DNA of 32,000 nt, from contig JAWDOO010000005.1 of assembly GCA_046533775.1 (NCBI GenBank), positions 7,652-39,651 of the forward strand, written 5' to 3'. This document shows, piece by piece, positions 6,120 to 29,900 of this stretch. How positions within the stretch are numbered: the stretch's first letter is position 1; every line of letters starts with the position of its first letter. Source of the stretch: Candidatus Nanopusillus sp. Its GTDB lineage: Archaea > Nanobdellota > Nanobdellia > Nanobdellales > Nanobdellaceae. Made by a program: the position numbers and the translations under genes. A model generated the notes under the pieces. The model was not told where the DNA came from and searched no databases. It saw only the letters and a program-made list of their open reading frames with translations.

Positions 6120-6620
6120 ATGGTAAAAAGAACCCAAGGTTTACCTTTAAATACTATAATTTTAGCAATTATTGCAATAGTTGTACTAGTATTTCTTGTA
6201 TTAATATTCACTGGTGGAATTGGAAAATTTGTTGGACAGACCAGTCAGATAGCTCCTTCATCTAATCAAACAAGTAGCGCGCAATGTTCAGAATATGCAA
6301 CATCAATACAAAGCCAAATGGGAACTTCCACAGATCCATCTACTCAATTAGAAATGTTAGCAAATTCTCAATATGTATTTTCTAACTGCAGCATTTATTT
6401 CCAATATTCATTTACTTTATATAATGGTTCTGAAGTTGTATGTGGACTTGGTCCAAATTACTGTATAAGCCTTTCTAGTTCTAGCTCCAGCTCTAACCAG
6501 GGTTCTAGCTCTAGTTCTAACTCTAATTCTGGTTCTAGTTCCAGTTCCAACTCTGGCTCTAGTTCCAGTTCTTCTTCTTGTACACCTCCAAATGGTATAC
6601 CTGGTTGCCAAATTCAATAA
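6120..6620 (+). CDS. Type IV pilin-like secreted protein with poly-Ser linker and six Cys
   Basis: The N-terminus MVKRTQG/LPLNTIILAIIAIVVLVFLVLIF looks like an archaeal class III (prepilin) signal: a short basic leader, a Gly, then a hydrophobic helix. The rest is S/T/Q/N-rich, with a 37-residue Ser-dominated tract. The protein ends in CTPPNGIPGCQIQ. Confidence 0.6.
   Translation: MVKRTQGLPLNTIILAIIAIVVLVFLVLIFTGGIGKFVGQTSQIAPSSNQTSSAQCSEYATSIQSQMGTSTDPSTQLEMLANSQYVFSNCSIYFQYSFTLYNGSEVVCGLGPNYCISLSSSSSSSNQGSSSSSNSNSGSSSSSNSGSSSSSSSCTPPNGIPGCQIQ
6468..6578 (+). repeat. Imperfect tandem coding repeat (about 24-nt units, GSSSSSNS-like) encoding a poly-Ser tract
   Basis: Read directly from the sequence. 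AGT/AGC/TCT/TCC codons are interspersed with AAC/AAT/GGT/CAG and encode SLSSSSSSSNQGSSSSSNSNSGSSSSSNSGSSSSSSS. Confidence 0.8.
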
Positions 6621-6650: not shown

Positions 6651-7289
6651 ATGATAGATAAAAATTATGTTTCATCAATTTTAGGTATATCAAAAACAAA
6701 ATTACAAGAATTAATAAATGAAAAAATAAAACAATATAAAAATTTAATTGATGAAGAAACAGCTATTTTATTGATATTAAAAGAGAGAGGATTAACATTA
6801 GAAGATTTATATAATATAAAAGTAAAAAATCTATATCCGGGATTAAAAGTAAGAGAAATAAAATTAAAGATAAATAAAATATTAATAAAAAAAGATAATT
6901 TAATAATTCTAGAAGCTGGAGATGAAACTGGATTACTTAAGTTAATAATTAAAGATTATAAATGGAAAAGAAAAGAGAATTTATTAAAGGAGAATAATAA
7001 TATAAAAGTAAAAAATGGTGTTGTACTAAATAATTTTGTTCTATCAATATTCATAAATAATATAGATTTAATAGAAAAGATAAATGAAGATATAAATTTA
7101 AATCAAAATTATATATCATATAGATATATAAGATTGTTAAAAGAAAAAGAGAATAATTATATAGTATTGACAGACAATTTTAATGTAATATATTTAGAAA
7201 AAAATATTCAATTGGAATATAATAAAACATATGCAATAAAATTTTATAATAAAAGACCAATTGAAATTATTGAATTAAAATCCTACTAA
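6651..7289 (+). CDS. Replication protein A (RPA)-like OB-fold ssDNA-binding protein (divergent)
   Basis: 212 aa. LIDEETAILLILKERGLTLEDLYNIKVKNLYPGLKVREIKLKINKIL...IILEAGDETGLLKLIIKDYKW matches the archaeal RPA N-terminal layout as I remember it. That layout is a helical lead-in, I-x-D/N-L-x-P-G, then a DETG-containing OB strand. The OB core looks shortened. Confidence 0.45.
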   Translation: MIDKNYVSSILGISKTKLQELINEKIKQYKNLIDEETAILLILKERGLTLEDLYNIKVKNLYPGLKVREIKLKINKILIKKDNLIILEAGDETGLLKLIIKDYKWKRKENLLKENNNIKVKNGVVLNNFVLSIFINNIDLIEKINEDINLNQNYISYRYIRLLKEKENNYIVLTDNFNVIYLEKNIQLEYNKTYAIKFYNKRPIEIIELKSY

Positions 7290-9059
7290 ACTCATTAAAT
7301 TATCTGGATTATTATAGTACATATTCATAATTTCTGCAATCTTTCTATAATTTCTTATGTTATTTTCTAACATATATTCTAATACCCTTATTTTAAATTT
7401 AAAGTTAGTTTCTATATCACTTTTACTCCAATTTCTAATTTCAGCAATTTTATTTAATACATAACTCTCGCCTAGTATATATGAATCATCTTTAGGATTC
7501 CATTTAAATGAAATTATCCTATCAACATCCTTTTTTTCTTTATTAAATCCAAGTATTTCATATATTTTATCTACCCTTCTTACATATTTTCCTTGATATC
7601 TCAATCTCTTAAGAAATATAACTCCATCTAATACTTCTAATAAAGATGGAGGTAAATTAATTGGAGGAGATAATAATCTATCCATTAATGCTTCAAAACT
7701 TTCTGCATGTATAGTACCCAAACCAGCATGACCTGTTGCCATTGCCTGGAATAATATATAAGCTTCCTCACCTCTTACCTCACCTACAATTATATAATCT
7801 GGTCTCTGTCTCAAAGCAGCTTTTAATAGATCAAACATAGTAACTTCACCATATCTATTTGGACCATATCCTGGCCTTGAAACTTCCGATAACCAGTTTG
7901 GATGTGGTAACTTTAATTCTGCAGTATCTTCTATTGATATTATCTTTTTCTCCGGTTTAATAAATAGAGATATTGCATTTAAGAATGACGTTTTACCTGT
8001 AGCAGTTCCTCCAGCTATTAATAATGATCTTCCCTCTTCTATTAATGTCCATAAATATGCTAACATATTAAAGTCGGCAGTTCCATATAATAATAGATCA
8101 ATAGGTGTGAATGGATCTTCTGTAAATTTTCTAATTGTAAATGAGGACCCCCTCCTAGAAATATCTTTTCCAAAGGTTATTTGAATTCTTGCTCCATTGG
8201 GTAAAGCAGCATCTAATAAAGGATTTGCAACAGAAACAATCCTTCCAGTTCTTACAGATAACTTTATTACAAAATTATCCAATTCTTCATCAGAATTAAA
8301 TTGTAAATTTGTTTTTATTTCACCTATTAATGGGTTTCTATGGAATATATATATTGGATAATTTATACCTGTACAAGATATATCTTCTATTAATGGATCT
8401 CTCATTAATGGATCTATTATTCCATAACCAATTGTGTCCCTTATTATGTAATATAATATATATGGTAATTTATTTGGATCTATTTTATATCCTTTTTCTT
8501 TTATTATATTTAAAGATTGTTTTATTATATAATTTTTCATATATTCTTCATTTTTTTCCATTCCTAAAGGAAATTCGGATGTTCTAGCTAAATCATCAAT
8601 TATTGAATTTATAATTTTCCTATCATTTTCATATATAGTAGGTTCTATTACATGATATACAAGTTCTCCATATTCATTATCCCATGATATATCTGCATAT
8701 GCAAATATATATTCTCTACCAAGAATATTCATCTTTGTTAGTGGATATCTAAATTGATTTATATTTTCATTTTTTCCATATAATTCTATAAAAAATTTAA
8801 GTTTATCTCTTTCAGTAATTTTTTTATTTTCTGAAGGTATATTAACCAAACTTATATTATAAACTTTTTTGTTTCTTTTTTTCTTTTTTCTTTTTTCATA
8901 TTTATTATTAGTTAATGGTATATAAATTGGTTGATATTCTTTATTTGTACTCTCTACGATATTTATCTTCTCATTTCTTTCATTTAATTTTCTTTTTATT
9001 TCAATCTTTTTTCTTATTATATCTAGAACATCATCAATAATATCATAAACATTGTTCAT
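7275..9059 (-). CDS. Type II/IV secretion-system ATPase of the archaeal FlaI/ArlI-PilB family
   Basis: 594 aa. Motifs: YHVIEP in the N-domain, Walker A GGTATGKTS, Walker B DYIIVGEVRGEEA, and the His box ATGHAGLGTIHA. It has a Lys-rich insert, KRKKKKRNKK, near the N-terminus. Confidence 0.85.
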   Translation of the reverse strand: MNNVYDIIDDVLDIIRKKIEIKRKLNERNEKINIVESTNKEYQPIYIPLTNNKYEKRKKKKRNKKVYNISLVNIPSENKKITERDKLKFFIELYGKNENINQFRYPLTKMNILGREYIFAYADISWDNEYGELVYHVIEPTIYENDRKIINSIIDDLARTSEFPLGMEKNEEYMKNYIIKQSLNIIKEKGYKIDPNKLPYILYYIIRDTIGYGIIDPLMRDPLIEDISCTGINYPIYIFHRNPLIGEIKTNLQFNSDEELDNFVIKLSVRTGRIVSVANPLLDAALPNGARIQITFGKDISRRGSSFTIRKFTEDPFTPIDLLLYGTADFNMLAYLWTLIEEGRSLLIAGGTATGKTSFLNAISLFIKPEKKIISIEDTAELKLPHPNWLSEVSRPGYGPNRYGEVTMFDLLKAALRQRPDYIIVGEVRGEEAYILFQAMATGHAGLGTIHAESFEALMDRLLSPPINLPPSLLEVLDGVIFLKRLRYQGKYVRRVDKIYEILGFNKEKKDVDRIISFKWNPKDDSYILGESYVLNKIAEIRNWSKSDIETNFKFKIRVLEYMLENNIRNYRKIAEIMNMYYNNPDNLMSLVGF

Positions 9060-15574: not shown

Positions 15575-15829
15575 ACTTTCTAAAATTTTCTTAATATTTT
15601 CATATAAATTCTGGCTTATTTTTTCAATATAAATAATATTATTATTTTTTATATAAAATCTTACATGATCCCCAGAATTTAAATTATTTATATCTATAGA
15701 TTTATCGAATGAATAATCTTTCCCATTTATTTCTATTATTACTTTATCCTTCATTATATTCTTTATTTTCCCATATATTATTCCCTCCTTTATATAATCA
15801 AATGATTCATACATAAAAAATATTTTCAT
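15563..15829 (-). CDS. Hypothetical 88-aa protein
   Basis: Its ATG directly abuts the stop of the upstream DUF95 gene (TAAATG). Composition is typical of this genome. No family is recognised. Confidence 0.4.
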   Translation of the reverse strand: MKIFFMYESFDYIKEGIIYGKIKNIMKDKVIIEINGKDYSFDKSIDINNLNSGDHVRFYIKNNNIIYIEKISQNLYENIKKILESLNE

Positions 15830-20963: not shown

Positions 20964-21311
20964 ATGGGAAGTAATTATAAAATTGGTTATTATTATGAGC
21001 AAAAAGTAAAAAAGATATTGGAAAAGGAAGGTTATGATGCATGGAGAACTCCTGGTTCACATTCTGCTATAGATATAATTGCAATAAATAAAGAAGGAAA
21101 GATAAGATTAATACAAGTAAAAAAGAATAAAAGAGATATTGATATAAACAATATTAATTATATTGATTTATATGAATTATATCATTTAGCAGAAAAATAT
21201 AAAGATTCTAATAATGTTGATATTGAATTATGGATATTTTCAAACAATGAATTAAAGAAATATAATAAAGATGATATATTAAAATTGAAAGATATTATTT
21301 CTTTACAATAA
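20964..21311 (+). CDS. hjc: Hjc-type Holliday junction resolvase-like PD-(D/E)xK nuclease
   Basis: The start is placed at the ATG at 20964; the track uses the TTG at 20940. YYYEQKVKKILEKEGYDAWRTPGSHSAIDIIAINKEGKIRLIQVKKNK aligns well with my memory of Pyrococcus Hjc ([29 protein letters not shown]...LCIEVK). The ExK motif reads QVK here. Confidence 0.6.
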   Translation: MGSNYKIGYYYEQKVKKILEKEGYDAWRTPGSHSAIDIIAINKEGKIRLIQVKKNKRDIDINNINYIDLYELYHLAEKYKDSNNVDIELWIFSNNELKKYNKDDILKLKDIISLQ

Positions 21312-22128
21312 TAAAGTATTCATATGGAATATCAAATTCTTTAATAACTTTATATTTTAATTTATATATTATAAATCTTTTAATCTTATATCTCCATGCT
21401 AAACCAAGATTTCTCTTTTTTCCAAGACTTTTCTGAGGAAAAGATATTATTAAATAATCAAAATCTAATTTAGATAATAAATTCCTTGGTGCATAAAAAT
21501 CATATTTTTCCAATATTGGAAATATCTTCCAAAAGAATATATATTGATAATGTCTAAATATTCTATCATCTGGATCTAATAAATCAATTAACCATCCTTC
21601 ATTTTCAATATTTAATTCTTTCAATATTTGATAATTTATATCTAATATTTTTTCAGATATATCTACATAATAATATTTTTTAGGTTTTTGATCTGAGAAA
21701 TAAATTGATATTGGATTCAATCCAGATGCTAAATCTAATATTTCTAATGGTTTTTCAATAAATATATTTTTATATATTTCTTTATAGAAATTTAATCTTT
21801 CAGCAGTAGACCTTGTTAACATTAATAATTCTATTATTTTTTGTTCCAATGTCATTTCATCATTAAATAATATTTTATCTATTTCTCTATCTTCTTTAGG
21901 TGTATATAAACCATATAATTCATGCAAAATTTTTCTTACTTCTTTAAATAATAAATAAAATTCTTCATCATTTTTCAATTGCTTTATACTTTTTATTGAA
22001 GATAATTTTTTATATAAATATTGTTTTTTGCTTAATTCTCTTTTTAATATATTTTCAACTACCTTATCAGATATATTTCTCAATTCCTTCTTATTTTTTA
22101 TCTCATTTATTATTTCAAATAATTCCAT
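21295..22128 (-). CDS. FmrO/ArmA/RmtB-family 16S rRNA (guanine-N7, G1405-type) methyltransferase homolog
   Basis: 277 aa. There are several colinear matches to ArmA/RmtB as I remember them:
- an N-terminal helical part (IKNKKELRNISDKVVENIL; RKILHELYGLYT)
- TRSTAERL
- SAM motif I, ILDLASGLNPISIY (family: LD[FI][AG]CG[LF]NPLALY)
- FWKIFPILEKYD
- IISFPQKSLGKKRNLG (family: [VI]SFP.[KR]SL.G..KGM). Confidence 0.7.
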   Translation of the reverse strand: MELFEIINEIKNKKELRNISDKVVENILKRELSKKQYLYKKLSSIKSIKQLKNDEEFYLLFKEVRKILHELYGLYTPKEDREIDKILFNDEMTLEQKIIELLMLTRSTAERLNFYKEIYKNIFIEKPLEILDLASGLNPISIYFSDQKPKKYYYVDISEKILDINYQILKELNIENEGWLIDLLDPDDRIFRHYQYIFFWKIFPILEKYDFYAPRNLLSKLDFDYLIISFPQKSLGKKRNLGLAWRYKIKRFIIYKLKYKVIKEFDIPYEYFIIVKK

Positions 22129-27512: not shown

Positions 27513-28202
27513 ATGTACAAATCTATTATAAATTTAATTAAAGAAATTGATTTTCAATTTTGGTGGCCGGTAGATATAAATTATCATAATAAAAATAAAG
27601 GGGATTGGAGAGTAGAAATAATTATAGGAGCAATATTGACTCAAAACACAAAATGGAATCTAGTAGAAAAAAATATAGAATATTTAAAATCAAAAAATTT
27701 TATATTTAGACTAGAAAATATAGATAATTTATCAATTAATGATATAAAAGTTCCATTTAGATTAAGAAAACTTGAAACATTAAAATATCTATCTAATTAT
27801 ATATTAGAAAATTATGGAAATATTGATAATTTTTCTAAATTAGAAATAAATAAAATGAGAGATGAATTATTAAAAATAAAGGGAATTGGAAAAGAAACAT
27901 GCGATGCAATAATATTATATTCATTTGAAAAACCAATATTTGTGGTAGATTATTATACTAAAAAATTTTTTAATAGATTTGAAGAATATGATAAATTGAG
28001 AATTGAAATAGAAAAAATTGTTAATGATAATTTTAATGAAATATATGATTTATTTTTAAATAAATTAAAAAATATGGAAAATAAAGACCTTCCCTTTTTA
28101 TCGGTATATGATCTAAGAAAAAATATAAGTTATGAAGAAAAATTGACAATAATATATAAAGAATTACATGCAATGATTGATATAAAAATGAAAAATCTAT
28201 AA
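27513..28202 (+). CDS. Endonuclease III-related HhH-GPD superfamily protein (no Fe-S Cys cluster)
   Basis: 229 aa. IIGAILTQNTKWNLVEKNIEYLK and the HhH element LLKIKGIGKETCDAIILY...VVDYYTKKFFNR are present. It lacks the C-terminal 4-Cys cluster of canonical Nth. Confidence 0.7.
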   Translation: MYKSIINLIKEIDFQFWWPVDINYHNKNKGDWRVEIIIGAILTQNTKWNLVEKNIEYLKSKNFIFRLENIDNLSINDIKVPFRLRKLETLKYLSNYILENYGNIDNFSKLEINKMRDELLKIKGIGKETCDAIILYSFEKPIFVVDYYTKKFFNRFEEYDKLRIEIEKIVNDNFNEIYDLFLNKLKNMENKDLPFLSVYDLRKNISYEEKLTIIYKELHAMIDIKMKNL

Positions 28203-28305
28203 ATAAATGTTAAAAATAAATTTTATTTAGATAAATACACAAATACTTTGGATTTTCGATACAATTATATCAAAATTAATTAACCTTATGTTTAAATAGT
28301 ATTAT

Positions 28306-29799
28306 ATGAATGAACTTGATATTTTAAGATCTATGGAAAATAAAGAATTTGTAAGATTTATAGCAGAAGAAGTATTACCTAAAATCGGTTATAAATATAT
28401 TACAATTACAGATGGTCCAGGTGATAAAGGTTGCGATGTTATTGCTTTTTATGTTAAACATAGAAAGTGCGTATGTATACAAATCAAAAAGTACTCTAAA
28501 GATAAAAAAGTAGATTCAAAAGAGATTATTTATACAATTAATGGAATGAAAAAATACAGATGCAAAAGAGCGCTTATAATAACAACATCAGATTTCACCC
28601 CTTCGGCATTACAAACAATCTATGAACATAGATTATGGCATCTCAATGGTTCGGAATTAATAAGGATACTGAGAGAAAGACATGTTAGATTACCTATAAC
28701 ATCAGAACTGACATTGAAAAATAATGAGATAGATAATAAAGTATTAATGGAAGAAGAAGCTGAATTTTTCCTTACAGACATAAAAGATGCTGGCGCTTTT
28801 ATGCCCATTTCAATAAGCGAAGCTATAAGGATAGCAAAAAATAAACTTTCTCATTATAAAGAAGTTAAATTAATTTCTGTAAAGGCGCATTTAAAAAGAT
28901 TGTATATTTTTAAGGGAAAAGTAAGTTATAAATTAAAGAGAAGAAGAAGCAGAAGATTTATAATATCCATAGACGGTGATGGAAACATATATTGGGGAAT
29001 ACTAACATTAGTTAAGAACTTAAATTGCGGAGTTGAATATGAAACAAATTCAGAGTTTTACTATAATGCAAGAGACCAAACAATAAAAATAGCTGAAAAA
29101 TTAGTGCCTCAAGGAGCTATAATAACAAAAATAAAACTGGAAGGCCATAAATCAGCATGGGTAGTTTCATATTATATATTAAGATTTAAAGTAGGTCTTA
29201 CTAAAGCGGAAGTTATTGTAGACAGAAAAGGAAATATAAAGAACCTCACCTTTGATCCATTAGATGAAGGAAAAGTAGAAGAATTTTATAAAGGAAAAAT
29301 AGTAAAACAAAACAAAGAAATAAAAGTTATTAGAGAACTTAACGACAATTTCTTAGAAGAGATTACTATTAATGAAGTTGGAGAAGCTATAAAAAGTATT
29401 AAGAGAGTTAAACCTGACTATGCAATAAGTTTAGCTAGAGATTTTTATCATATTAATAAAGGAGAAATTAGATTTGAAGAAGTAAGTGATGGGGTTAAAG
29501 TTGATATCTTCTTTAATAATTATCATCATTTAGCTAAAATAAATAATGAAGGTAAAATTGTTGATAAAGTAGTAGTGCCGGATATAAATACATATGATGG
29601 TACAGAGAAAGGTTATAATAAGAAAAGGAGATGTCTTATAGTTAAAGAGGGAATCGAAATTAAAGTAATCAATGATAGCGGGGTAATAGAAAGAAAAGAA
29701 ATACCTAATGGAATACTATCTAAACTAAAGTTCTTAATAAATAATATAATTACATCTAATTATTCGATAGATACAGATGATCCATTAGAACTATTATAA
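28306..29799 (+). CDS. Mrr-type restriction-endonuclease domain fused to a ~370-aa repeat region (PepSY-like modules), function unknown
   Basis: Residues 1 to about 125 match the Mrr_cat layout: FVRFIAEEVLPKIGYKYITITDGPGDKGCDVIAF...VCIQIKKYSKDKKVDSKEI...RALIITTSDFTPSALQ. This gives D...QxK. The rest shows three or four iterations of a pattern: helix, then strands ending in D/N-x-x-G-x-I. GC is about 30 % by spot counts, higher than the flanking genes. Confidence 0.7.
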   Translation: MNELDILRSMENKEFVRFIAEEVLPKIGYKYITITDGPGDKGCDVIAFYVKHRKCVCIQIKKYSKDKKVDSKEIIYTINGMKKYRCKRALIITTSDFTPSALQTIYEHRLWHLNGSELIRILRERHVRLPITSELTLKNNEIDNKVLMEEEAEFFLTDIKDAGAFMPISISEAIRIAKNKLSHYKEVKLISVKAHLKRLYIFKGKVSYKLKRRRSRRFIISIDGDGNIYWGILTLVKNLNCGVEYETNSEFYYNARDQTIKIAEKLVPQGAIITKIKLEGHKSAWVVSYYILRFKVGLTKAEVIVDRKGNIKNLTFDPLDEGKVEEFYKGKIVKQNKEIKVIRELNDNFLEEITINEVGEAIKSIKRVKPDYAISLARDFYHINKGEIRFEEVSDGVKVDIFFNNYHHLAKINNEGKIVDKVVVPDINTYDGTEKGYNKKRRCLIVKEGIEIKVINDSGVIERKEIPNGILSKLKFLINNIITSNYSIDTDDPLELL

Positions 29800-29900
29800 T
29801 TAATTTTTATAACAGCAAAAATACCTGCTTTTATATCTACTAAATATCAGAGATAATATAAAAATGAAAAATTTAAAGTAATTATTTATACTAAATTTCT

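Follow-up and report, generated by a model that had tools for sequence, protein, structure and literature searches.

MspJI and AspBHI (structures 4f0p and 4oc8) are modification-dependent, Mrr-like enzymes of Type IIM/IV which follow a sensor, linker and nuclease logic, and their genes are solitary, with no cognate methyltransferase. The sensor of these enzymes is an SRA-like domain that flips 5-methylcytosine (5mC), and the catalytic motif of MspJI has been described as D-X20-Q-A-K (PMC3479186). In our study, a gene for a 497-amino acid (aa) protein, in which a nuclease domain of the Mrr type is joined to a large C-terminal module, has been analysed in a 32,000-nucleotide stretch of DNA from Candidatus Nanopusillus sp. 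(the whole stretch is referred to as the window). The gene lies between an HhH-GPD glycosylase-like gene and the aspartyl-tRNA synthetase gene (aspS), and the comparison with relatives has revealed that it is an accessory gene inserted between housekeeping genes. With a probability of about 0.9, it belongs to a horizontally acquired accessory cassette from the host lineage of the nanoarchaeon, and a stand-alone Type IV-like defence nuclease would be its best-supported function (probability 0.45-0.5).

The source organism is a terrestrial hot-spring nanoarchaeon of the Nanobsidianus/Nanopusillus group, for which the hosts known so far are Sulfolobales and Acidilobus (PMC6142677; PMC3655853). 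The 497-aa protein is exactly NCBI MFP3167248.1, 'MAG: restriction endonuclease [Candidatus Nanopusillus sp.]' (MAG, metagenome-assembled genome), and the database labels for this protein and its homologues read 'restriction endonuclease', 'restriction endonuclease type IV Mrr domain-containing' or 'hypothetical'. A literature search by protein accessions and locus tags gave no paper naming the gene, and the statements on horizontal gene transfer in the Nst1/Acd1 and single-cell papers make no mention of it.

Insertion site and empty alleles

The insert and its borders are made up of the following features of the window (ORF, open reading frame).

28180..28196, + strand: left copy of the 17-bp direct repeat ATATAAAAATGAAAAAT, within the final codons of the HhH-GPD gene
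28197..28237, + strand: left end of the insert, AT-rich and of unassigned origin, conserved among the occupied nanoarchaeal loci
28238..28305, + strand: 5' region of the cassette (about -68 to -1), homologous to the sequence upstream of the Sulfolobales copies
28276-28283 (-30 to -23), + strand: TATA-like box TTAATTAA, assigned by position and sequence
28306..29799, + strand: fusion ORF of 497 aa, Mrr_cat nuclease joined to the C-terminal module
29800..29855, + strand: 3' region of the cassette, homologous to about 55 bp downstream of the Sulfolobales copies
29856..29872, + strand: right copy of the 17-bp direct repeat ATATAAAAATGAAAAAT, from which point on the window is collinear with the empty site

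Empty sites were found by scanning species-representative genomes with the AspRS encoded by aspS of the window. Five Nanopusillaceae loci were returned, namely those of N. stetteri Nst1, Nanopusillus sp. CON-C-r01, Nanoarchaeota YN1, MAG KM4331-08 and Nanobdella aerobiophila MJ1 (L011, which is Nst1, and L012, L013, L014 and L015). In all five, CDC48, orf111, S9, L13, L18e, dcd, HhH-GPD, aspS and SpoU are collinear with the window and the HhH-GPD gene is separated from aspS by just 25 bp, the empty-site sequence being GATATAAAAATGAAAAATTTAAAGTAA; blastn found no trace of the insert in any of these loci. The five empty sites prove that the 497-aa gene is an accessory gene inserted between housekeeping genes. 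The initial annotation, made from the window alone, had suggested such an insertion and had proposed to check whether the flanking genes are contiguous in relatives; these are found joined in the five relatives, the opposite of a gene present at this locus in all of them.

The borders of the insert are sharply marked. The two copies of ATATAAAAATGAAAAAT are the only ones in the window (0.12 expected by chance) and lie precisely at the ends of the stretch that the empty sites lack, so that the alignment of empty and occupied loci together with these repeats defines an insert of about 1.66 kb (28197-29855) carrying one gene. The left repeat ends the HhH-GPD gene one residue early, the C-terminus MKNLK of the empty sites becoming MKNL in the window, whereas the right repeat runs into the ancestral HhH-GPD end, followed by the 25-bp spacer and aspS. 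The AT-rich stretch 28197..28237 is absent from L011-L015 and is present with few substitutions in four occupied loci (L001, L093, L096 and L100). Moreover, the gene is found at exactly the same site, with the same junctions, in at least 10 independent contigs (JGI, ENA, Logan and NCBI). A single insertion event placed the cassette in the 3' end of the HhH-GPD gene of a nanoarchaeon of the Nanobsidianus/Nanopusillus type and duplicated 17 bp.

The insertion is still polymorphic, as equally close strains are either occupied or intact-empty, and there is at least one probably decayed copy. The AspRS of Nst1 is 97% identical to that of the window, and its empty locus shows 95.8% identity to the window in the right flank, in comparison to 96.5% for the occupied L001. 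The long spacers noticed around the gene at the outset (103 and 101 bp, ranking second and third by length among the 32 spacers of the window, whose median is 7 bp) were found to belong to the insertion, representing the co-transferred promoter, the 3' region and the 17-bp duplication.

In terms of transposon features, the insert has a single ORF and no transposase, and its sole inverted repeat is the self-palindromic TTAATTAA motif. The 17-bp duplication is longer than the usual target duplications of transposons. A 15-nt inverted repeat, TATCAAAATTAATTA / TAATTAATTTTTATA, brackets the ORF at window positions 28268-28282 (in the promoter core) and 29797-29811 (right after the stop codon); this repeat may be trivial because TTAATTAA is self-palindromic.

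Origin and evolution of the cassette

The family of the 497-aa protein is tiny, with 34 homologues among 5.8 billion clustered proteins, and the profile of the C-terminal module has returned only 11 cluster representatives among 1.84 billion proteins. The gene is nevertheless not the orphan it had been called, as full-length homologues with 53-58% identity form a Sulfolobales clade. At 57% identity, these are found in Sulfolobales such as Sulfuracidifex metallicus (WP_054838021.1) and Stygiolobus caldivivus; a MAG of the same order and numerous hot-spring contigs with a GC of 0.39-0.51 also carry such homologues. Within the nanoarchaeal clade, the identity to the window protein is 83-87%. Deeper relatives are found on contigs of GC 0.37, 0.44, 0.56 and 0.28, some of them being 660-680 aa long with about 175 aa of extra sequence inside the module. 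Outside the nanoarchaea, the family is confined to higher-GC thermoacidophilic archaea including Sulfolobales, the taxonomy of most contigs being taken from their GC. Both the nanoarchaeal and the Sulfolobales allele types co-occur in metagenomes such as Ga0326758, Ga0080005 and Ga0081534.

In a neighbour-joining tree (no bootstrap), the nanoarchaeal sequences form one long-stemmed clade; its sister is the Sulfolobales clade, and the remaining lineages branch off outside both. Most nanoarchaea lack the gene, among them the cultured symbiont Nanobdella aerobiophila MJ1 at this locus. Parsimony favours a transfer into the nanoarchaeon from the side of the Thermoproteota, given the single insertion site, the lack of the gene in other nanoarchaeal genera and the much deeper diversity seen outside the nanoarchaeal clade. 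The donor was probably a Sulfolobales-type archaeon or one of its mobile elements, and the physical contact of host and symbiont may have given the opportunity for the transfer.

The homology with the Sulfolobales copies extends past the ORF, by about 68 bp on the 5' side and about 55 bp on the 3' side, which indicates that the transferred unit was a promoter-plus-gene cassette. In case of the stretch from -40 to -1, the identity between the window and three Sulfolobales loci (L005, L007 and L110) is 82-90%; the nucleotide identity between the nanoarchaeal and Sulfolobales ORFs is 0.66-0.68 overall and reaches a maximum of 0.80 in any 60-nt window, below that of the promoter stretch. The TTAATTAA element at -30 to -23 is a putative promoter box and would predict a leaderless mRNA. 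The right boundary of the cassette is ragged in Sulfolobales. In S. metallicus, a GC-rich inverted repeat, CTTCCTCCCCGCCCTAAGGGCGGAGGTTCCC (L005 9637-9670), precedes the gene by about 360 bp, and in two metagenomic Sulfolobales contigs (L103 and L105) a nearly identical copy stands in place of the usual 3' flank, 9 bp past the stop codon; this repeat may be a small repeat element marking recombination breakpoints around the cassette.

The Sulfolobales copies are always solitary and lie in variable regions, with a neighbourhood that differs from locus to locus. The genes nearby, toxin-antitoxin genes among them, include VapB, HEPN/nucleotidyltransferase, PIN and PaREP1 genes, a resolvase, and an IS110 transposase with archaeal ATPases. 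In S. metallicus (L004/L005 12094-13589), an intact 462-aa tyrosine integrase lies 580 bp away from the fusion gene and abuts a tRNA-Glu(CUC); the 13 kb on the far side contain no att-type direct repeat of this tRNA-Glu, and the integrase linkage therefore stays contextual. In the examined contexts there is no conserved neighbour and no DNA methyltransferase next to the gene, and a solitary gene of this kind is consistent with Type IV systems, though not diagnostic of them. The family was not found in the viral contigs of IMG/VR or among the GenBank phages and archaeal viruses, and the PLSDB plasmids gave N-terminal Mrr matches only, with a coverage of at most 28%.

The coding sequence has almost fully adjusted to the nanoarchaeal composition. 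The GC content of the gene is 0.276, in comparison to a mean of 0.234 for the genes of the window (sd 0.050, z=+0.85), and higher values are reached by CDC48 (0.300) and the thermosome gene (0.321). The GC content at third codon positions (GC3) is mildly raised (0.167 versus 0.118, sd 0.029, z=+1.7); the nanoarchaeal copies have a GC3 of 0.15-0.17, in contrast to 0.45-0.52 in the Sulfolobales copies, whose GC is 0.42-0.45. The initial annotation had considered the gene to be compositionally distinct, a view that did not hold up; the comparison had used its two AT-richest neighbours. Compositional foreignness was accordingly rejected as evidence, the GC being within the spread of the window genes. 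It follows from the adjusted composition that the transfer was not very recent and that an assembly chimera is excluded.

The fusion gene is under purifying selection, its rate of evolution is several times that of the surrounding genes, and loss of the gene is possible. Pairwise comparison of the window with L001 gave a dN (nonsynonymous rate) of 0.073, a dS (synonymous rate) of 0.269 and a ratio of the two (ω) of 0.27 for the fusion gene, whereas the neighbouring genes showed a dN of 0.005-0.025 and ω of 0.04-0.12. The nucleotide identity of the insert is 88.5-90.3%, in comparison to 93-96.5% in the right flank. At the same locus, L115 (1-1249) carries a change of W110 to stop and three frameshifts in the part of the gene covered by its contig, and is probably a pseudogene, while L098 (187-1679) carries one frameshift; the disruptions in these two copies are due to either pseudogenisation or homopolymer sequencing errors. 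A gene that is selected, fast-evolving and losable shows the usual signature of accessory, conflict-related genes.

The genomes of Nanoarchaeota, which live in contact with the crenarchaeal hosts they are attached to, are some of the smallest of any cell, and gene flow from the host lineage has seldom been resolved cleanly at the level of mechanism. The locus described here is a concrete marker for how, and how often, DNA crosses the contact between host and symbiont, and for what a minimal genome keeps.

Nuclease domain and C-terminal module

The fusion protein is divided into an N-terminal nuclease domain, a linker and the C-terminal module, encoded as given below.

28324..28668, + strand: Mrr_cat PD-(D/E)xK nuclease domain, aa 7-121 (Pfam, invariant residues, Foldseek)
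28435-28437, 28480-28482 and 28486-28488, + strand: codons of the candidate catalytic residues D44, Q59 and K61, respectively (alignment)
28681..28800, + strand: acidic, variable, disordered linker, aa 126-165 (predicted local distance difference test, pLDDT, and column entropy)
28801..29796, + strand: family-defining C-terminal module, aa 166-497 (AlphaFold, motif count, profile search)

The N-terminal domain matched the Pfam family Mrr_cat (PF04471) over aa 7-121 with 63.1 bits against a cutoff of 21 (E=3e-17), and the motifs GDKGCDVIAF, CIQIKKY and ALIITTSDFTPSA are all present in the protein. The residues D40, D44, Q59 and K61 were found to be invariant in a family alignment of 17 sequences with 41-100% identity, giving an active-site spacing of D44-X14-Q59-I-K61. 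The scanned full-length relatives match Mrr_cat at 68-90 bits, with the exception of P0041, which is without the N-terminal domain. The AlphaFold model of the 497-aa protein has a pLDDT of 86, the N-terminal domain being at about 67-93 per block of 10 residues. A Foldseek search with this domain has identified the nuclease domains of MspJI (4f0p) and AspBHI (4oc8) as the best solved neighbours, along with AF1548 (1y88), with a probability of 1.0; the root mean square deviation (rmsd) to MspJI 4f0p is 4.2 Å over 121 columns. A sequence search of the nuclease domain alone against the PDB gave no match. By profile, catalytic residues and modelled fold, the 497-aa protein belongs to the Mrr_cat / PD-(D/E)xK superfamily, and it is predicted to cleave DNA.

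An inactive nuclease was also considered, owing to a match with Pfam NA-iREase1 (29.2 bits against a cutoff of 27), and was rejected, as this match lies under the far stronger Mrr_cat match and the catalytic residues are intact. In the PADLOC-DB v2 collection, weak matches of 19-27 bits were obtained to PDC-S02, mREase_IV and LmuA, all of them within the nuclease domain. The N-terminus has no hydrophobic segment and no evident secretion signal. The window also codes for a native small PD-(D/E)xK nuclease of the genome, the Holliday-junction resolvase Hjc (115 aa, 20964-21311, + strand), which matches Pfam Hjc at 30.7 bits and Mrr_cat at 24.4 bits and whose architecture is unrelated to that of the fusion protein.

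The linker is flexible and acidic, with a net charge of -5, the highest column entropy and, over aa 132-151, a pLDDT of about 30. It is followed by the module, which on its own was modelled by AlphaFold with a pLDDT of 90 and a predicted template modelling score (pTM) of 0.71. In this model, four units of a helix followed by antiparallel strands are succeeded by a fifth, all-beta unit. The module carries the basic motif GYNKKRRCLIV and the invariant tail YSIDTxDPLxL, and its isoelectric point (pI) is 9.4. The pattern [DN]xxGx[IV] occurs four times in aa 166-497, at 223, 306, 413 and 456, where shuffled sequences would give 0.52 (P=0.002), and all four occurrences are placed on strand-turn-strand hairpins of the model. 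The secondary-structure order of the module fits four or five helix-on-antiparallel-sheet units, whereas the alignment of units against each other by hhalign is weak (best pair P=0.008, not significant after multiple testing). The positions differing between the clades amount to 30% in the module and 52% in the nuclease domain, so that the module is, unexpectedly, the more conserved part.

In case of the last 370 aa or so, no sequence family was found in Pfam, NCBIfam or PDB, and the profile search against PDB gave nothing meaningful. The Foldseek comparison of the module model with PDB and BFVD has returned non-specific beta-rich matches only, with template modelling scores (TM) of at most 0.2. 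The top match was 3u1w (TM only 0.2), which we take to be a PepSY-like tandem-repeat protein. The PepSY family (PF03413) itself has no match in the window protein, but four of seven family members match it on units 1 and 2 with 13.4-22.9 bits against a cutoff of 24, the best score (22.9 bits, E=1e-4) being that of an allele with 88% identity. Weak matches to latexin, which has a cystatin fold, were also obtained for the module. Some distant members, P0041 (527 aa), P0037 (465 aa), P0035 and P0040, seem to consist of the C-terminal module without an N-terminal Mrr domain and retain a D-P-[LV]-[DE]-L tail; these may be either true stand-alone modules or gene calls that were truncated because the contigs are short.

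The initial reading of the protein has thus proved right in its outline, i.e., an Mrr-type nuclease joined to a large uncharacterised repeat module, with about 370 aa lacking a recognised motif and with a repeated helix/strand pattern ending in a D/N-x-x-G-x-I turn. The label 'PepSY-like' is borne out in part, by the relatives that come close to the threshold, while the window protein gives no match.

The window has a GC content of 24% and carries archaeal housekeeping genes, including Rad50/Mre11, thermosome, the large subunit of PolD, Hjc, CDC48, the ribosomal proteins S9/L13/L18e, dcd, aspS and a SpoU methylase. Scans for Rfam families and tRNAs gave none in the window, and its longest intergenic spacer (255 bp, 15575-15829) has no tRNA by ARAGORN and no Rfam family. 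The gene at 6120-6620 (+ strand) codes for a 166-aa protein that carries a hydrophobic, pilin-like segment at its N-terminus and ends in a long poly-Ser/Asn tail; Pfam has no family for it, and the GC at second codon positions (GC2) is unusual at 0.53. The gene precedes that of a FlaI/type IV secretion-type ATPase (7275-9059), and its product could be a surface or pilus protein. An FmrO-type 16S rRNA methyltransferase is encoded at 21295-22128 on the - strand and is probably the bacterial-type rRNA G1405 N7 methyltransferase which is common to nanoarchaea and bacteria as per Podar et al. 2013. Further, an Aenigmatarchaeota MAG (L018 6138-10640) has three tandem aspS-like class II aminoacyl-tRNA synthetase genes, with 40%, 49% and 29% identity to the window AspRS.

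Proposed function and comparison with known systems

As a defence enzyme, the 497-aa protein would be a single-polypeptide, DNA-targeting nuclease of the Type IV or stand-alone kind. The basic, conserved C-terminal array of PepSY-like alpha/beta units would recognise the target, most likely a feature of foreign DNA and alternatively a foreign protein. The flexible acidic linker would join this array to the N-terminal Mrr-type D...QxK domain, which would cut the DNA, probably as an oligomer, as MspJI does. The intact Mrr-type active site, the flexible linker, the conserved basic module built of repeats and the solitary, mobile accessory nature of the gene all suggest this function. A defence role had also been put forward in the initial annotation, and it is retained as the best-supported function, with the qualification that PADLOC recognises the nuclease domain only and that the module matches no known DNA-modification reader by Pfam or Foldseek.

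Some observations weigh against a defence nuclease acquired from the host lineage. No full-length match to any defence protein model of PADLOC-DB v2 was obtained, and the gene is outside any recognisable defence island in the nanoarchaeon. The Pfam search of the C-terminal 370 aa, in the window protein and its relatives, gave none of the modified-base readers (SRA, winged helix/Mrr_N, PUA, EVE, YTH, ASCH, DUF3427). PepSY domains are typically extracytoplasmic, so that a cytoplasmic role in sensing DNA or protein would be unprecedented, and the basic pI could merely reflect the lysine bias of a thermophile with an AT-rich genome. As for the origin, the transfer was given its direction by parsimony and by a neighbour-joining tree without bootstrap, in which the clades are sisters and not nested, and the taxonomy of most of the higher-GC contigs was taken from GC and one MAG label.

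A further-reaching form of the same idea is that the cassette is an autonomous unit moving between Sulfolobales and their attached nanoarchaea, with a new class of cytoplasmic PepSY-like sensor that couples the recognition of a foreign modification or viral protein to an Mrr-type nuclease. We consider this form rather unlikely; if true, it would be direct genomic evidence of a DNA conduit across the contact, through which a genome-reduced ectosymbiont borrows the innate immunity of its host. The distribution of the gene could otherwise reflect its own spread, i.e., that of a selfish mobile nuclease cassette which, like a free-standing homing endonuclease, cuts the empty or another specific site and is copied in by repair. 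PD-(D/E)xK homing endonucleases exist, and a one-gene unit with its own highly conserved promoter, roughly defined ends and many unrelated Sulfolobales contexts would suit such an element, as would the presence/absence polymorphism at one site between conserved nanoarchaeal genes and the decayed copies, which fit a cycle of gain, decay and loss. However, the 17-bp direct repeat found here speaks against homing, which does not duplicate its target; the nanoarchaeal copies all go back to one insertion and nothing points to repeated invasions, the module is conserved above the nuclease domain with ω of 0.27, pointing to selection on protein function, and the right boundaries of the cassette are ragged in Sulfolobales. 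We know of no Mrr_cat homing endonuclease; this explanation is held to be unlikely, and if correct the cassette would be the first Mrr-type homing-like element. Doubtful as well is the proposal that the module is a PepSY/cystatin-like protein-binding or inhibitory array, making the protein an abortive-infection or toxin effector, or a symbiosis factor, triggered by a protein ligand and not by DNA, for example by sensing a viral or host protein or by degrading imported host DNA for nucleotides. It agrees with the near-threshold PepSY and weak latexin matches, with the protein-directed roles of PepSY (peptidase inhibition and partner stabilisation), with the dependence of Nanoarchaeota on their hosts for nucleotides and with the restriction of the family to a host-symbiont community. 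On the other hand, a ligand, a partner gene or a secretion signal is not evident and most nanoarchaea do without the gene, as does cultured Nanobdella aerobiophila MJ1 at this locus, while the presence of the same protein in free-living Sulfolobales makes a symbiosis-specific role unlikely.

A partnership with the HhH-GPD glycosylase had also been suggested; in such a partnership, the protein could be a housekeeping DNA-repair enzyme cleaving, for example, abasic or damaged sites. The five relatives that keep HhH-GPD beside aspS without the nuclease gene refute this partnership, and no HhH-GPD gene was seen near the Sulfolobales copies; the gene also has its own promoter, its own separate insertion and probably pseudogenised copies. 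Although it adjoins, on the same strand, the HhH-GPD / 3-methyladenine-glycosylase-like gene, and Rad50/Mre11, Hjc and PolD are nearby in the window, a repair function is thereby very improbable. The chance of an artefact, by chimeric assembly or by contamination of a nanoarchaeal contig with host DNA, is close to negligible. Host and symbiont DNA are indeed co-extracted and the homologues belong to the host order, but the composition is nanoarchaeal (GC 0.276 and GC3 0.167, against 0.42-0.45 and 0.45-0.52 in Sulfolobales), the identity to the Sulfolobales proteins is only 57% and the junctions recur in at least 10 independent assemblies.

The reading as a Type IV-like defence nuclease can be set against the known enzymes. 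MspJI and AspBHI are the closest structural neighbours of the nuclease domain, and MspJI shares the Q variant of the active site (D-X20-QAK in comparison to D44-X14-Q59-I-K61; PMC3479186). The sensor, linker and nuclease logic and the solitary gene are also shared, whereas the domain order is reversed, the nuclease being N-terminal in the 497-aa protein, and the SRA-like sensor is replaced by a 330-aa PepSY-like alpha/beta array without a fold match, known from sequence and model. In DpnI, an m6A-dependent Type IIM enzyme, the order is the same, with an N-terminal PD-(D/E)XK catalytic domain and a C-terminal binding domain (PMC3479186), but the latter is a small winged helix to which no sequence or fold similarity was detected in the 497-aa protein. 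E. coli Mrr and the other Type IV enzymes of PF04471 share Mrr_cat, well above the threshold, and Mrr_N was not detected here. The archaeal Mrr-like protein AF1548 (1y88, function unassigned) has a nuclease domain of the same fold (target-normalised TM 0.52, probability 1.0), but it has 184 aa and is without the C-terminal module. With the PepSY domains of M4 peptidase propeptides and YpeB (PF03413), the module shares a helix and antiparallel strands ending in a D/N-x-x-G-x-[IV] hairpin; unlike PepSY proteins, the 497-aa protein has no signal peptide or membrane anchor, and its scores are below the curated threshold. To our knowledge, no PepSY-nuclease fusion has been described.

The 497-aa protein is hence an Mrr-family nuclease with an undescribed putative sensor module; as judged from its sequence, it appears to fall outside the characterised Type IV families, since it has no known modified-base reader. 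In this family, a well-understood catalytic domain is combined with a strongly conserved 330-aa module that has no structural match and is confined to hot-spring archaea, and the ligand of this module could add a new recognition module to the poorly charted restriction and defence repertoire of archaea.

As a locus, it shares presence/absence polymorphism with free-standing homing endonuclease genes and differs from these in its 17-bp repeat, as such genes lack a target duplication. Gene sharing between Nanoarchaeota and the archaea of their host groups had been reported earlier in general terms only, for Ignicoccus and Nanoarchaeum and for Thermocladium and clade 2 Nanoarchaeota, the latter two having four unannotated proteins in common (PMC6142677). 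The present case is likewise that of a protein common to a nanoarchaeal lineage and archaea of the host group; what is new is the resolved insertion of this gene, for which, unlike in the earlier reports, the site with its empty alleles and its duplication can be seen, as can the promoter that was transferred along with the gene and the polymorphism in the population.

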